This document shows, in pieces, positions 8,120-17,806 of a stretch of 20,000 bases of DNA. The notes under the pieces are model-generated. The model made no database searches. It was not told where the DNA came from and saw only the letters and a list, made by a program, of their open reading frames with translations. A program made the translations under genes and the position numbers. Position 1 is the first letter of the stretch. The number at the start of each line of letters is the position of its first letter. Source of the DNA: an uncultured virus (IMG/VR IMGVR_UViG_3300008070_000002) (Duplodnaviria > Heunggongvirae > Uroviricota > Caudoviricetes). The stretch is from the IMG/VR virus record IMGVR_UViG_3300008070_000002, positions 55,697 through 75,696 of that record; one strand, written 5' to 3'.

Positions 8120-9730
8120 TTAATCTCTATTTTGACGGCGCACTAAGAACGCCATTAACTCTGCAAGTTGAACACGTAAATTATAATCGAGTACTGGGCC
8201 ATCTTTATAGCGTAGAAGCTCGGCTACTTCAGAAGTACAGACTACTTTTAATGGCAAGCTCACAACCAGCGAAGTGTACATCTCTACAGAAATACGACCG
8301 CCGCCCATCGGTTTTGCATTTTTGGTGTTACTATCAATCGGGCGATGAAAACGATAAAGCGCATCCAATGCCTGACGCTGTTTACTGTTTAGATGTACTA
8401 GCTCAGGTGCTTGGTAATCGTCGTCGTCTACCAGGACCGTCGACATTAGCCGTGCAATCCCATGAAAACCCCAATGAATCAAAGCGGCTTGCGTTACCCC
8501 CATGGCATTGATCATAGCCCGACGATTAATATCCGGTATAGTCTTGACCATGACGTCGTTTGCAAGAATCCACTGAACCAGCGTTTGGTGCACCGGAACG
8601 CGATTGTCCCCACCAAGGATAATTAAATCCTTGGAAGATTCCAGCGATTCAATACAAGCAACAACGGTAGATGTTGGGATGACATCGTCCAGGTCGCGAC
8701 GTACCCGACGGTAATCGTACAGATAAACCTGGTTTGCAATGATAACATCACTTGCCACTTTCTGAGTTGCTGAGTACGACTCGAAGTAACCAGTTTTATC
8801 GTCTTCCGTATTGCCCCAGTTCATATCCCGTTTACGTACCATCATTCCCACTTTTACATGGATATGTTTGGTGTCCTGTTTAATCTTGTTAAAGACTGAA
8901 CTCACCAAGGTTACTTTAGGGTCCGTTGGGCTTAACGGTGTACAAACCAGTTTATTGCAGATGGCAGAGGCTAACAGATAATTTGGAATCTCTGTCGTAC
9001 CAACGCCACCAATCACCGCGGACGCTTCGTTGTTGTTATCAACGATTTGATACGCGGACTCCACAAACACGATTAATCGCTGCATGAACGGATGTTCCAC
9101 CGCATGAGTATCGCGAATGATGCGCAGTAATTCTAACTCGAAATAGATTCTGTTGTTCAGAATATCTTTCGGTACTGCACAACGGAAGTCAGTCCATACG
9201 GGAATCATCGCCCGGAACATGGTGGTTAAGCAGGCTAACCCGAAATACTGTGCCTTCGTGTACGTAATGGTTTCGCGGTGTCGACCGTCATTGTCGTCAA
9301 ATACATCGGCCACGTTAGATGGGTATCGAATATCTTGGGTTTCCAAGAAATCAGCAATCTCATCTAAATCATGGTACTCATCAATCATGGTTCTGACTTC
9401 AGGAATCAGCAGCTTCACCATGGTGGAAATATCTGACGTTTGGCTGATTAGTGTATGAATACGACGATATTGGTTGAATAACTTGCCTTGCCATACTGAA
9501 TCGCGGGATGCCCAATACGCATTGATTTCTCTAAGCAGGTTATCCACCCGCTCAGCTTTGTTCTGCTCTGGGGTCTTTTTCTGGCCACTATCGCGAACTG
9601 CGGTTTCTTCTTCCTCACTTCCACGATACCAACCCTGGTATGGTTTAAATTCCCCCCAAGTTAGATACTCCCCATTATTCTCAATGGTTAACATGGTTTG
9701 GACATCGTCATGTCCAATATACATTCTCAT
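8120..9730 (-). CDS. nvRNAP promoter-specificity (sigma-like) subunit, phiKZ gp68-like
   Basis: 536 aa, predicted largely helical, with AGGAG RBS and its own class-1 promoter motif. Size and position (ChmC-like upstream; gp69/gp70/beta/beta' downstream) fit gp68. Confidence 0.7.
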   Translation of the reverse strand: MRMYIGHDDVQTMLTIENNGEYLTWGEFKPYQGWYRGSEEEETAVRDSGQKKTPEQNKAERVDNLLREINAYWASRDSVWQGKLFNQYRRIHTLISQTSDISTMVKLLIPEVRTMIDEYHDLDEIADFLETQDIRYPSNVADVFDDNDGRHRETITYTKAQYFGLACLTTMFRAMIPVWTDFRCAVPKDILNNRIYFELELLRIIRDTHAVEHPFMQRLIVFVESAYQIVDNNNEASAVIGGVGTTEIPNYLLASAICNKLVCTPLSPTDPKVTLVSSVFNKIKQDTKHIHVKVGMMVRKRDMNWGNTEDDKTGYFESYSATQKVASDVIIANQVYLYDYRRVRRDLDDVIPTSTVVACIESLESSKDLIILGGDNRVPVHQTLVQWILANDVMVKTIPDINRRAMINAMGVTQAALIHWGFHGIARLMSTVLVDDDDYQAPELVHLNSKQRQALDALYRFHRPIDSNTKNAKPMGGGRISVEMYTSLVVSLPLKVVCTSEVAELLRYKDGPVLDYNLRVQLAELMAFLVRRQNRD

Positions 9731-9751: not shown

Positions 9752-9769
9752 TCACCATGATAATATCTA
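9752..9769 (-). promoter_or_regulatory. Phage promoter-like motif class 1, copy upstream of the gp68-like gene
   Basis: TAGATATTATCATGGTGA on the minus strand. Confidence 0.7.
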
Positions 9770-9785
9770 ATCGTAAGATTATGGG

Positions 9786-9810
9786 ATTAGGGCCCTAAGC
9801 GAGCCCTAAT
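9786..9810. terminator. Hairpin (possible terminator) after the Tad2-like gene
   Basis: Minus strand ATTAGGGCTC-GCTTA-GGGCCCTAAT (10 bp with one G.U); no good U-tract on the minus strand, TTCTTT on the plus strand. Confidence 0.5.
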
Positions 9811-9814
9811 TTCT

Positions 9815-10273
9815 TTATACCAAGTACCAGTCTTTTGCTTGCATATCGGTTTGCGAACACAGCCATGGTACCACTTTATCATCTGCGGTTTTCATTGCCA
9901 GATATGGTAGAGATTCACCATGGATGCTTGCATCTTCATCAGGGATAACTAAGAACACAAACATACCTTTACCGTTCCAGCCTTCGCGTGCAATATGGAC
10001 ACCGTTGCCTTCCAAGCATTCTTCCAATGCAATCGAGTACGACAGTGGGCCAGAAAGATCAACGTTACCTTTCTCGAACTCTTCTTTCGGAGACCAACTA
10101 ATATATTCTTTTTCGGTGTCCTTGTTATAAACTACCAGGTAACCTGGCGCTTCAATATTGCCGTGGATTTTATTGCTGGTATGATACGCTGCGTCGCCAA
10201 GCAGCATTGGGGTAGCATGAACGTGCTTTACTGAACGATAAAGTTTTAAGTCTTGCATTTTCGGTTGCTCCAT
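9815..10273 (-). CDS. Two-domain protein with C-terminal DUF2829/Tad2-like (Thoeris anti-defence sponge) domain
   Basis: C-terminal SYSIALE..IAREGWNGKGMFVFLV..PYLAMKTADDKVVPWLCSQTDMQAKDW is the DUF2829 signature. N-terminal domain K.V.A.PM..GYLVVY..YISWSPKEEFEK. The true start may be ATG 10258 (GGAG upstream). Confidence 0.82.
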   Translation of the reverse strand: MEQPKMQDLKLYRSVKHVHATPMLLGDAAYHTSNKIHGNIEAPGYLVVYNKDTEKEYISWSPKEEFEKGNVDLSGPLSYSIALEECLEGNGVHIAREGWNGKGMFVFLVIPDEDASIHGESLPYLAMKTADDKVVPWLCSQTDMQAKDWYLV

Positions 10274-10276
10274 GAA

Positions 10277-10299
10277 CCTAGGAGGCAGTGCCTCCTAGG
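10277..10299. other. Perfect GC-rich inverted repeat between the ChmC-like and Tad2-like genes
   Basis: CCTAGGAGGCA-G-TGCCTCCTAGG (11-bp arms); no U-tract on either side. Confidence 0.75.
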
Positions 10300-10303
10300 A
10301 TAG

Positions 10304-11152
10304 TTATTGGTTCAGATTGTAATCATCAAAGTTGATATTGGTGTCCACCGGTGCAGAAGCCTGCTGCTGTTGCTGCTGATAGCCGCCGCCTTGATTTTGC
10401 TGGTAGCCGCCTTGACGCTGCTGATAGCCGCCGCCACCTTGGTTACGCTGATAGCCACCGCCACCACCCCACTGCTTCTTCTGGAAGCCGCCACCACCCT
10501 GGCCACGGTTTTGATAACCACCACCATTATTCCATTGTTTCTTCTGGAAGCCGCCACCTTGGCCACCCTGACCGCCTTGACGACGTTGGGCTGGAGCCGA
10601 GTCAGCATATTCGCGTTCGAAGATAATATCCACGACACCTGAGATTTCTTTAACCCAGTTGCGTGCACGACGGCGGGAAAGCTCTGATGGTGGTACTGGA
10701 TTACCAGCGCTATCAACGATCTCAATATAACCTTCAGAGATAAAGTCAAATTTAACTTCACCACCTTGGGTATTGGAGACAGCCAGGTAAACAATACCTT
10801 CTTGGCTAATACCGACTTTAATTTCAGATTCACCATTGCGGCGGTACGCAGTAGACCACGGCAGGTTGGATTCTTTCGCAGCCCGCAGAATATCTTCCTT
10901 CAGCATACCCCATTCTGTTTTGGGGAATAGCATAGATACCCATTGACCTGAAGCATCGCGTGATACATCCGCAGCCATACGAACGCAATTCTTCTCAACC
11001 GACATACGTAGACTGGAAATAGACTGCGTTTGTGGGTCACGTCGGGTCAGACGAAATGTACGGTCTGATAATGGGTTTGACTTTGCCGGTGGTTGGGCAG
11101 CAGCTTGGCTCTCACCTTGCGCAGGGGCTTGAGCGTTTTGATATTGTGACAT
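10304..11152 (-). CDS. Probable ChmC-like nucleus-associated nucleic-acid-binding protein (phiKZ gp67-like) with G/Q/Y-rich tail
   Basis: 282 aa: a compact alpha/beta domain followed by GGGFQKKQW x2, GGGYQ repeats and an acidic end (INFDDYNLNQ). Position upstream of the gp68-like gene matches ChmC; not confirmed by alignment. Confidence 0.65.
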   Translation of the reverse strand: MSQYQNAQAPAQGESQAAAQPPAKSNPLSDRTFRLTRRDPQTQSISSLRMSVEKNCVRMAADVSRDASGQWVSMLFPKTEWGMLKEDILRAAKESNLPWSTAYRRNGESEIKVGISQEGIVYLAVSNTQGGEVKFDFISEGYIEIVDSAGNPVPPSELSRRRARNWVKEISGVVDIIFEREYADSAPAQRRQGGQGGQGGGFQKKQWNNGGGYQNRGQGGGGFQKKQWGGGGGYQRNQGGGGYQQRQGGYQQNQGGGYQQQQQQASAPVDTNINFDDYNLNQ

Positions 11153-14846: not shown

Positions 14847-15035
14847 CTATTTACTCCTGTAATATCTTAAAAAGTTGTTTGCCATCGCGATCACTTCCGG
14901 ATGATGGGTAATAATACCTTTCACACGGCGTGGTTTTGATGTGTCGATAATCCCTAAGTGGGACATCAACCGACGGAATAGCCTCCGTTCTTTATTATCA
15001 CGTAAAAGCTTAATCTGCATCTGGTCACCGTCAAA
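14847..15035 (-). CDS. rpoC: nvRNAP beta' N-terminal subunit, exon 2 (FDGDQMQ...YYRSK, 62 aa)
   Basis: Begins TTT GAC GGT GAC (FDGD), completing the catalytic NADFDGD motif when joined to exon 1; preceded by G at 15036. Confidence 0.93.
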   Translation of the reverse strand, partial: FDGDQMQIKLLRDNKERRLFRRLMSHLGIIDTSKPRRVKGIITHHPEVIAMANNFLRYYRSK

Positions 15036-15458
15036 CATTGCTTTCAGCAGGCTCGCAACTTCCCACCAGTTCTCTCCCAGTTACCTGGGGAACTTCCCGA
15101 TCGTTATAATCGGATATAAGAGCACATCATTTCCATATACAGCCAGGCTGTACTTAGGATTCCCCCATTTCACACTACCTGTCCGTTAGGACGCTTGTAG
15201 GCTACACCGCGCTACCGGTTGCTCGTTGAAGCCACACCATCACCCGAAGGCCTAAGGTGCTTTCTTGCTGATTTTCCATTGTGTACTTGCGTACTGACCC
15301 TTAGCGCCGTATCTCACGATAGGATTCCATTTAAGCATAGGTCAACTGTTCAGTTTTTTCTAGATTTCTCTACCGTGACGTTTGCCGTTTCCAGCTCCGC
15401 TTTGGTTGAACAGTATTAGGCTCTTCCAGCAGTTAGAGGGACACTACTTCCCTTATTT

Positions 15459-16439
15459 CTAAGAGAGAGGACTTTGCGTATAACGAATTATGTAACCTCG
15501 CCATTGTTCTTTCTTGGTAGCTTTTTGAATTACCGATTTACAAACAAACATTTCCTTAGCAAACGCTTCGGCCGATGGATAATTTGTAACTTCTCCGGTA
15601 ACCGTATTTTCTACTGTGATAGGTATTGGTTGTCTAATAGGGGTGGTTTTTTCGAACACAGTTGCCGGGATTTCCCGCACATCGTCCAAATGGTCCTTAA
15701 AATCACATTCGTACCATATTTGAATTTTGTGTTTCGCTATTGATTTTATCCCGCCGTTTAAGTATTGGTACAGTATAAATACATTTACATCAAAATATCT
15801 AGCAACGTCGCTTACACTTTGTGCAACGTAAAACGTACCATCGTCATCAACTACAACTACCTTTTTACTGTTACCATTCCGATGTTTATAAGCATCTTCT
15901 TTAGTGAGTTTATGTTTTGAACCCACTTTAACAATAGAAAAGATATCGTCAAACGGTGCATCGCCTCTGCTGTTTATGTACGCAGATATGCGATATGGAT
16001 TTACTTCAAAAGCCCTGGCTGTTTCATTTAGACTATAAAACTGTTTCTTTTCCCCAGTTAACAGGTTCATCACTTCAAGGTTAAGATTATCGTCGCGAAG
16101 TCCTGATTTATACGCATGTGTAATATTACCGCTATACGTAGTAAGCTCCAGGTTCTCAATGCGGGGATTCATCTTGTTACCGTCGATGTGATTAACTATC
16201 GGTTTATTTTCGTCTTTTTCCAAAAATGTCTCCACCATCAGTCGATGCACTGTGTACTGTGCGCCGTTATAAACTACTTGTGGGTACTTGAAAAATCCGA
16301 CGAATGGAACCAGACAACTATTGGCATCTAGGTTTATCACCCTACCTAACACTGAAAGGGTTAATGACCTTATAGTGGGGTGGATATAAAAACCACGATA
16401 CTTTTTACTTTCAATAATACCTTTTCTAAACACTTGCAC
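15459..16439 (-). CDS. Intron-encoded HNH homing endonuclease (I-HmuI-like, with NUMOD1/IENR1-type repeats)
   Basis: 326 aa; VHRLMVETF..VNHIDGNKMNPRIENLE.TTYSGNITHA (HNH), then three HTH-like repeats FYSLNETARAF, QSVSDVARYF, YPSAEAFAKEM. GTG start with AGGAGG; visibly more AT-rich than the flanking genes. Confidence 0.93.
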   Translation of the reverse strand: MQVFRKGIIESKKYRGFYIHPTIRSLTLSVLGRVINLDANSCLVPFVGFFKYPQVVYNGAQYTVHRLMVETFLEKDENKPIVNHIDGNKMNPRIENLELTTYSGNITHAYKSGLRDDNLNLEVMNLLTGEKKQFYSLNETARAFEVNPYRISAYINSRGDAPFDDIFSIVKVGSKHKLTKEDAYKHRNGNSKKVVVVDDDGTFYVAQSVSDVARYFDVNVFILYQYLNGGIKSIAKHKIQIWYECDFKDHLDDVREIPATVFEKTTPIRQPIPITVENTVTGEVTNYPSAEAFAKEMFVCKSVIQKATKKEQWRGYIIRYTQSPLS

Positions 16440-16461
16440 AGTGAGCGCCTCCTAATTACTA

Positions 16462-16486
16462 CATAGGGTTGACGCTGCTGTAATTA
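16462..16486 (-). promoter_or_regulatory. Promoter-like motif class 2 inside the intron, upstream of the HNH gene
   Basis: Minus strand TAATTACAGC AGCGTCAACCC TATG, followed by TAGTAATT AGGAGG and the GTG start. Confidence 0.6.
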
Positions 16487-16510
16487 ATTACATAAGATCT
16501 CGTACGCGGC

Positions 16511-17806
16511 ATCAGCATTGGGCGCTTTTATCGCCAACACGGATAGCAGCATTGCTTTTACGTTTATATTCGTAATGACTTTCGTCATACGAAAATACTG
16601 GTTCGAACCACGAGCCAGTGTGGGGTTTCGAAGGATCGATAGCGGTATACCACCCTCGGGGCATTGCGCTATTAACTTGTTTATAACCTCGTGAATTAAA
16701 GCATCGTAACGCTGGGTGGCGTTATCGATGTATTTGTAGATTTTCTTCGGTGACATCTTGTATTCGTTCAAGAGCATCGAGGCAATATCTACACGTAACA
16801 GACCAACAGACACAGACCATGGCATATGGACTTCGTCGTATTGGTGGGCACTGGCCAGTGGCGCAATAACCGCACGAGCTGTCCATTGCGATCGGGTAGA
16901 ACCTAACTGACGTCGGGCAATCCCCGTTTTACTACCACACGTATTCTTACGGAACTCCACATGATAATCTTTATACAGTTTAGTGAACTTAACTACTAGT
17001 GAGTTCACACGTCGCACCGACATGCGCATTGCAGATGTTTCAATAGCGCAAATCGTTTTAACCGCGTCAAATGCCAACGGCATCGCCGGGTCGACTTGTG
17101 TCGTAAAGCCCAACTGTTCAGATGGGAATACAGCCCGTGATGGGAATGGTACATGTGTTGACCAAATACAATCCCGGTACTTCTTCAAGATACGGCGCAT
17201 TTTACTGCATGCAATATCCCGAATATTACGGCCAGCATTCTTACCTGTACGGTGCTTTAACATCGGTAACGGTTGAACAACAACATCCATAATCCAATCG
17301 AAGTTATGATAAAGCTCTGCATAACCACGTGGGACTTTATGTTCTTCCAAATAACCAACGATGGTTCGTGTCATCTCGTCATTTGGATTTGGCGGTATGT
17401 AGGTTGGATCCGTCAACCACATCAAGATATCCACTTTACTGGAACTCATTTCTGATGTAAACAAACTCCAGAATGTCGGGTTGATTAACGCCGGAATACC
17501 TTCCGGTGCCGCTATCCATATTTGCGAATAGGTTGGGCGGTCGATCGCTCGCCGAACTTCAGTACCGCAATGTGGACAAACCACGGTGTTGAACGCACCA
17601 GTTGTTAACCCACAGTCACATTTTGGTAATGTATCTAACTGATCTGACGAATAATGAATTCGAATAAGATCGTTAATTACATCGCCTGCTTTTGTTGCTG
17701 GATATTCAGTAATAACCTGATTAATCACCACTGGCTTTATAAGCAGCGAATCCCACTGTGCCTGGTAGTTTAAGAAACGTAGACTAATGCCATTAGGAAA
17801 AGCCAT
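16511..17806 (-). CDS. rpoC: nvRNAP beta' N-terminal subunit (phiKZ gp55-like), exon 1 (432 aa; spliced product 494 aa)
   Basis: Zn finger CDCG..CPHCG; KTGIARRQLGSTRSQWTARAVI (cf. [20 protein letters not shown]); LRNPTL; ends APNAD at the intron junction. Confidence 0.93.

Follow-up and report, generated by a model that had tools for sequence, protein, structure and literature searches.

The window analysed here, a 20,000-nucleotide stretch of an uncultured virus, carries within a gene block of nucleus-forming phages a gene whose product joins a Tad2 domain to a separate small N-terminal domain. We consider it most probable (roughly 0.6) that this protein combines a sponge for the Thoeris signal with a second module that has a counter-defence target of its own. 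It would be an accessory counter-defence gene gained by one lineage of nucleus-forming phages.

A two-domain gene between the ChmC-like and gp68-like genes

The sequence-only reading had proposed a Tad2-like sponge fused to an uncharacterised N-terminal domain, bounded by hairpins and inserted between two nucleus genes. The following features were found at this place:

9815-10273, minus strand: fusion open reading frame in its longest form, 152 aa
9815..10258, minus strand: probable true extent of the fusion gene, 147 aa from Met6
10049..10258, minus strand: N-terminal domain (residues 6-75), a small fold rich in beta-strands that belongs to no Pfam family
9818..10042, minus strand: Tad2 (DUF2829, PF11195) sponge domain, residues 78-152
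10268..10271, minus strand: GGAG, probable ribosome-binding site, 9 nt 5' of Met6
10277..10299, minus strand: upstream hairpin with a 10 bp stem, directly past the ChmC-like stop
9786..9810, minus strand: downstream hairpin
9759..9768, minus strand: AGATATTATC, located downstream of the insert, a probable phage promoter motif for the gp68-like gene
10304..11152, minus strand: upstream neighbour, ChmC-like RNA-binding protein with a Gly/Gln-rich tail (phrog_3284, E 4.4e-25)
8120..9730, minus strand: downstream neighbour, phiKZ gp68-like non-virion RNA polymerase subunit (phrog_3209; tblastn)

The two-domain organisation of the open reading frame is real. Its C-terminal part (residues 78-152) matches the PF11195 profile with 80.3 bits against a cut-off of 25 (E 1.6e-22), and residues 6-75, which contain GYLVVY..YISWSPKEEFEK, form a separate domain of about 70 aa without a Pfam match. 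The hairpins were recovered as well: the only two inverted repeats found between positions 9700 and 10400 (701 bases, arms at most 40 nt apart) lie one on each side of the gene. The neighbours also agree with the proposal, as the upstream one belongs to phrog_3284 and the downstream one matches PHIKZ068 in tblastn (E 7e-16). phrog_3284 is common to the upstream neighbour, PhiPA3 gp61 and phiKZ gp67; the direct BLAST match of the neighbour to PhiPA3 gp61 is weak (E 0.023). PhiPA3 gp61 has been named ChmC and is reported as the second most abundant non-structural protein of that phage (10.1101/2023.09.22.559000). With chimallin (PF25677), RNA polymerase subunits and an SbcD-like nuclease, the window represents the conserved block of nucleus-forming phages.

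The true start of the gene is probably Met6 at 10258 and not the first codon of the longest open reading frame. This start is favoured by the GGAG upstream of it, by the close relatives, six of six of which start at the equivalent position, and by one contig (depth 4.5) in which one extra base behind 10257 breaks the frame from Met1 and keeps the frame from Met6.

Elsewhere in the window (14847-17806, minus strand) an RNA polymerase subunit reading frame stops soon after ...APNAD. It is followed by an HNH endonuclease gene (15459-16439) and a 63-aa reading frame (14847-15038) that begins FDGDQM. It looks as if an endonuclease-carrying intron interrupts the catalytic NADFDGD motif, and a similar split of the RNA polymerase motif is, we assume, present in phiKZ.

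The C-terminal half has the pocket of a gcADPR sponge

In Foldseek, the AlphaFold model of the C-terminal half (pLDDT 90.8) matched SPO1 Tad2, SptTad2 and MoTad2; for SPO1 Tad2 the match had an E of 3.7e-6, a TM-score by target of 0.78 and an rmsd of 2.9 over 77 columns. All six gcADPR-pocket residues that we checked are present (W99, N100, W137, S140, T142 and D143). In the alignment, W99, N100, W137 and D143 fall on SPO1 W25, N26, W73 and D79, residues of the described gcADPR contacts (10.1101/2023.05.01.538930), while S140, T142 and D143 fall on HgmTad2 S90, T92 and D93, which were mutated in that protein (PMC10680739). The Tad2 identity is thus backed by sequence, predicted fold and pocket residues. 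Compared with the known Tad2 proteins (SPO1 Gp34.65, PDB 8SME/8SMF/8SMG; MoTad2, 9EIB), these three properties are alike, whereas the additional 70-aa N-terminal domain and an insertion of about 13-14 aa, as opposed to 24 in SPO1 Tad2, set the present protein apart.

This insertion bears on the ligand. Cyclic dinucleotides had been named as an option, and the Tad2 proteins described to bind them (HgmTad2, SptTad2) carry 35-41 inserted residues between beta2 and beta5 (PMC10680739). The corresponding segment here, at about residues 110-123, is acidic and far shorter than this range, so that binding of cyclic dinucleotides by this Tad2 half appears unlikely and the option is weakened. The spacer is among the five shortest of 122 homologues measured, our protein included, and three close relatives have an insertion that is 8-9 residues longer. 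The likeliest ligand is gcADPR, which is not certain because specificity varies within the Tad2 family. MoTad2 is reported to bind His-ADPR and cUMP and not 3'cADPR (10.1101/2025.08.24.671296; 10.64898/2025.12.03.692087), and the C-terminal half aligns equally well to MoTad2 and SPO1 Tad2; another ADPR derivative could therefore be the ligand.

DUF2829 homologues are also annotated as 'anti-CRISPR protein', and AcrIIA7 without its head domain has been reported to bind tracrRNA (PMC13133391). An AcrIIA7-like, tracrRNA-binding anti-CRISPR is nevertheless a reading to which we give hardly any weight: an N-terminal head abolished the activity of AcrIIA7 in the same report, a lack of anti-Cas9 activity in vitro and in vivo has been described (PMC10680739), the Tad2 half here is acidic (5 K+R, 12 D+E), and Cas9 is described as already excluded by the nuclear shell.

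The N-terminal domain is related to that of RyR Tad

The N-terminal domain had been called uncharacterised. This holds in so far as it has no Pfam family, but over 68 aa it is 46% identical to residues 1-70 of gp68 of Pectobacterium phage vB_PatP_CB1 (tblastn, E 3e-10), which is the protein RyR Tad (10.64898/2026.06.04.730250). It also matches phrog_18865 (E 1.3e-14). Its nearest relatives in cultured phages are N4-like, namely stand-alone 70-aa genes (57% identity in EK8) and CB1 gp68, and its subtype is that of the RyR Tad N-domain and of stand-alone 70-aa genes of Cbunavirus. A 249-kb record labelled 'partial genome', that of Enterobacter phage SonariX (PQ898399), has an N4-like primase locus with the same match score as a 76-kb phage and may be a mixed assembly.

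In the description of RyR Tad, the N-domain is a fold of unknown function that often stands alone and that forms a beta1-swapped dimer in the crystal; the gcADPR pocket is located in the other domain, and against type I Thoeris this C-domain was sufficient, while the N-domain by itself showed no apparent activity (10.64898/2026.06.04.730250). Type I Thoeris is the one defence for which we found tests of this domain family. Judging by this homology, the N-domain is one previously seen and partly characterised, and it carries a different gcADPR sponge here. Both proteins have the N-domain first and a gcADPR-sponge domain second; the sponge half is Tad2 here and RyR Repeat12-like in CB1, and the carrier is a nucleus-forming virus here and an N4-like phage there.

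These properties of RyR Tad, a domain-swapped dimer that is inactive alone against type I Thoeris next to a C-domain that is enough, also fit a different explanation. Tad2 would then be the sole active part, and the N-domain a passive strand-swap scaffold that staples subunits, stabilises the oligomer or links tetramers and is reusable across anti-defence domains. The occurrence of one subtype on RyR in CB1 and on Tad2 here argues in the same direction, since it means that the partner is exchangeable. We see a minor yet real chance for this explanation, as Tad2 is reported to tetramerise without an N-domain (10.1101/2023.05.01.538930; PMC13133391), and a scaffold role alone leaves the stand-alone genes unexplained, including those in the ChmC slots of pEa_SNUABM_37 and SA002 described below.

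In its AlphaFold model (pLDDT 92.6) the N-domain is mainly beta and folds independently. Sequence searches of the PDB with the domain gave no significant match, and a fold search with the model gave none at E<=0.001. A second fold search over 48,161 chains had a best Z of 3.7 (3be3, rmsd 2.8, 50 aligned residues), and a repeat inspection gave a Z of 2.6. In the ESM Atlas, a feature search returned unnamed clusters only, all under 0.9. Several identities were considered, and four of them (chromo- or Tudor-like domain, pdAcrIIA7 head, Sequestin and Acb4) were rejected. For a chromo- or Tudor-like domain there were weak rows, with four weak Tudor_5 or SH3 Pfam matches among 150 homologues. pdAcrIIA7 (9KZR) has a helical head, which is not the domain found here. 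Sequestin is an all-helical hairpin while our model is mainly beta, PF21825 gave no match, and Sequestin occurs as a partner; likewise, there was no PF13876 match for Acb4, which occurs as a separate partner of the N-domain. Lockin gave no row in the sequence and fold searches, the libraries of which may not contain a Lockin structure. It is described as a curved beta fold that forms a cog-like hexamer and is absent from INPHARED genomes (10.1101/2025.07.12.664507). The N-domain is found in 50 INPHARED records at E<=0.1. With 8 K+R and 10 D+E, it is not basic overall; the pockets of known sponges are reported to be positive (10.1101/2025.07.12.664507).

A profile built from 11 sequences, mostly stand-alone members, matched 4,919 clusters at E<=1e-3; with the threshold at E<=1e-10, 1,740 remained. 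Ninety of the 150 best matches are at most 115 aa long, a set in which the shares of stand-alone and partnered forms are biased because the seed consisted mostly of stand-alone proteins. Three tandem duplicates of the domain among the homologues fit a dimeric unit. In the literature we found no name or function for the domain; the tests of 124 proteins in 10.1101/2025.07.12.664507, the tables of 10.1101/2025.08.24.671296 and the panel of 10.64898/2026.06.04.730250 may hold tests of it.

Besides the subtype found here there is a longer one, in which the Trp of SWSP is substituted and which has an extra hairpin that our subtype lacks. Through this longer subtype a remote link exists to the N-terminal OB-fold of phage L Dec (PDB 6E3C; PMC6449081). 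A profile of five longer-subtype members matches Dec with 17.6 bits (E 2e-7 for one comparison), whereas the best of 200 shuffles reached 7.0 bits, and the longer subtype and Dec have KPEVGGY in common. Several homologues are annotated as decoration proteins, and one methods section describes the removal of sponges that have a 'PDB 6E3C' domain as well (10.1101/2025.08.24.671296). On this view the N-domain might be a shortened Dec-like OB module with affinity for capsids or nucleic acid, through which the sponge would be anchored to virions or to RNA close to the nucleus. We regard this as improbable, because our own subtype does not match Dec (-0.5 bits; hhalign probability 21%), which makes the link merely transitive, and the homologues lie in anti-signalling hot spots beside the primase gene and not in head modules.

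Named partners of the N-terminal domain are anti-defence domains

The fusion turned out not to be a speciality of nucleus-forming phages but to occur commonly in small phages. Over its whole length the protein matches phrog_872, the type of N4 gp49, and 40 of 264 matching phage records, N4 gp49 among them, align over at least 80% of the query with identities of 30-42%. The two-domain layout of these N4 gp49-type proteins (Kapi1, IME10, KP8) is alike over the full length, whereas our N-domain is of the RyR-Tad-associated subtype (phrog_18865; support of the larger clade 98/92). For this reason the present fusion may have been assembled separately.

Among the 150 best matches of the N-domain profile, 23 have a named partner (16 Tad2, 4 Sequestin, 3 Acb4), in all cases a sponge family, and 37 of the 60 longer matches have partners without a Pfam name. 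A second search was seeded from a Tad2 fusion; among the 120 of its 162 matches that were listed, 89 contain Tad2, 12 Acb4, 3 both, 3 Sequestin and 13 no Pfam family. The Atlas structure search retrieved the same partner domains. Two further kinds of fusion are RyR Tad and KF4_077 of Vibrio phage vB_VpaS_KF4, in which the N-domain lies between Tad5 (PF25190, E 3.8e-28) and a segment with a MazG-like annotation. Matches like this three-part protein occur in many related Vibrio phages. Tad5 is counted among inhibitors that bind Thoeris proteins (PMC13243611); the partners are therefore anti-defence domains but not sponges alone. The survey of partners that had been called for thus yielded five anti-defence kinds (Tad2, Acb4, Sequestin, RyR Tad and Tad5-MazG) along with many longer matches whose partner has no name, and the statement that all partners are anti-defence applies to named partners only. 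Since every named partner is an anti-defence domain, the N-domain is tied to counter-defence. In general terms this part of the earlier proposal stands; against it, the relative in CB1 gp68 was inactive against type I Thoeris.

Fusions of two sponges have been described before, and in Acb4-Tad2 each sponge is reported to be active (10.1101/2025.07.12.664507). Like Acb4-Tad2, Sequestin-Tad2 and Acb4-Sequestin, our protein is short and has two modules with at least one known sponge, but in those fusions both halves are described with known ligands (10.1101/2025.07.12.664507; 10.64898/2026.06.04.730250). The fusion survey that found Sequestin is described as querying Pfam families only (10.1101/2025.07.12.664507), so that a domain without a Pfam family could not surface in it. 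The N-domain is not among the seven sponge families given in the relevant part of a 2026 review (PMC13712596), and the corresponding part of the Acb4 preprint does not mention fusions (PMC11722364).

Some fusions contain additional segments. In seven proteins the N-domain is followed by a short helical module that recurs among them and belongs to no Pfam family; by the same fusion logic this module is a further counter-defence candidate. One protein with N-domain and Tad2 has an RyR-like segment within the Tad2 insertion. In two nucleus-type records, N-domain-Tad2 fusions have an extra C-terminal domain of about 120 aa, and the one such protein scanned gave no Pfam match for it.

The gene is an accessory insert in the ChmC-gp68 slot

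To score the slot between ChmC and gp68 we used the best 80 of 334 matches of a gp66 alignment in IMG/VR, from which one locus identical to the window and two without gp68 in the stretch were excluded. At none of the remaining 77 loci was Tad2 or the N-domain found in the slot, and Tad2 was likewise found there at 0 of 20 GenBank loci of nucleus-forming phages. The gene is hence not a core gene of the block, in agreement with the accessory status proposed for it. Eight of the 77 loci have unrelated reading frames of at least 100 aa in the slot. Such accessory genes include a lipoprotein-like reading frame, a membrane protein, and sets of two or three reading frames with a Cys-rich protein; five proteins from four of these loci gave no Pfam match. 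In GenBank, 17 of the 20 loci have no real gene in the slot, the slot of Psa21 is taken by a GIY-YIG endonuclease, and that of pEa_SNUABM_37 and SA002 by an unfused N-domain of 89 aa. These counts are not independent because SA002 was chosen through its match, the SA002 and pEa_SNUABM_37 proteins are 76% identical, and phages overlap between IMG/VR and GenBank.

In a tree of 53 rows, 40 of them drawn at random from 362 available domains, and 69 columns, the N-domains of pEa_SNUABM_37 and SA002 group on a long branch with members of the longer subtype, and the domain of the window lies elsewhere. This grouping suggests a second, separate insertion into the ChmC slot; a single origin of the two insertions is not rejected (p-AU 0.277). 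In Erwinia phage pEa_SNUABM_37 the two halves are encoded apart: the N-domain gene follows ChmC, and a lone Tad2 gene lies about 34 kb from it. SA002 has the N-domain in the slot and no Tad2 match. Across 56 nucleus-type records, many of them incomplete, PF11195 is above the cut-off in six, always outside this slot; five of these are fusions with the same N-domain and the sixth is the lone Tad2 of pEa_SNUABM_37.

The gene is in place in contigs from three wastewater runs of three studies. A search of 4 of the 21 listed runs for an empty site, i.e. a contig joining across the gene, found none.

Transcription of the insert

Neither flanking hairpin has a U-tract on the coding strand, and a terminator scan found one site compared with 1.7 in shuffled sequences. 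The upstream hairpin is strong (about -21 kcal/mol for the whole 76-nt stretch). A hairpin soon past the ChmC stop was present in 12 of 12 reference intervals that we folded, which indicates that at least one of the two flanking hairpins is native to the block, and the insert lies behind a hairpin at the position where its insert-free relatives have one too. The ChmC stop lies 45 bases before Met6, and hairpin makes up half of this spacer; this leaves no room for a promoter, and the insert must therefore be read through from ChmC. Transcription presumably passes through the post-ChmC hairpin. The earlier idea that the insert borrows strong expression from the ChmC unit is weakened by its position behind this hairpin, which may either stop the RNA or just stabilise it. 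A single RNA run was uninformative, its coverage being limited to pieces of the neighbour genes and to a 40-base conserved Tad2 motif from other sequences.

The probable promoter motif AGATATTATC behind the insert occurs five times without a mismatch in the 75.7-kb contig, each time on the minus strand. At up to one mismatch it has 18 matches compared with four for a control pattern, one of the matches being there by construction since the pattern was taken from the site itself. In phiKZ, TATATTAC, which we take to be an early promoter, stands at the corresponding place upstream of gp68.

A position behind such a hairpin, in a slot that takes unrelated genes (8 of 77 IMG/VR loci, and the endonuclease of Psa21), would also suit a weakly expressed passenger with little effect on fitness. 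We consider this very improbable: six relatives, down to 74% identity, have an intact frame and all pocket residues, and the placement recurs in the contigs of the three studies.

Proposed function

The preferred reading remains a Thoeris sponge joined to a second counter-defence module. By analogy with solved Tad2 structures, the Tad2 half would form a homotetramer with two pockets between protomers and sequester 1''-3' gcADPR. This capture would blunt type I Thoeris, a signalling defence that a DNA-enclosing shell would not stop. From the homology to RyR Tad, the N-domain is expected to be a separately folding module that dimerises by a swap of its first beta-strand, and its target would differ from the signal of type I Thoeris. 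Ligand binding, oligomeric state and expression of the full protein are here extrapolated from its homologues and its context.

The N-domain most likely has a counter-defence activity of its own, because it often stands alone, keeps a set of aromatic and polar positions unchanged and occurs in fusions with five anti-defence kinds. Within this explanation, a small-molecule sponge is somewhat ahead of a protein-binding inhibitor. A more specific picture can be offered only tentatively. The N-domain may be an eighth, unnamed type of counter-defence family with several thousand clusters and a Dec-like OB-fold origin, whose strand-swapped dimer would capture an untried immune signal or an immune protein. 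The swap might let Tad2, Acb4, Sequestin, RyR Tad, Tad5-MazG or unfused copies co-assemble, and recruitment to the ChmC transcript would have occurred at least twice.

The Tad2 half is ordinary, and its patchy distribution in the nucleus-type records indicates that nucleus-forming phages add signal sponges to their shell only here and there. Our analysis contributes three points: the N-domain is linked to one with a crystal structure, it occurs in a Tad5-MazG fusion, and it is found behind ChmC more than once. The lasting value lies in the N-domain, a large family without a Pfam model that is joined to five kinds of anti-defence domain. Its natural 70-aa stand-alone versions in cultured phages, such as that of EK8, together with that of pEa_SNUABM_37, allow direct testing, and a ligand, if found on stand-alone N-domains, could expose a new immune signal.
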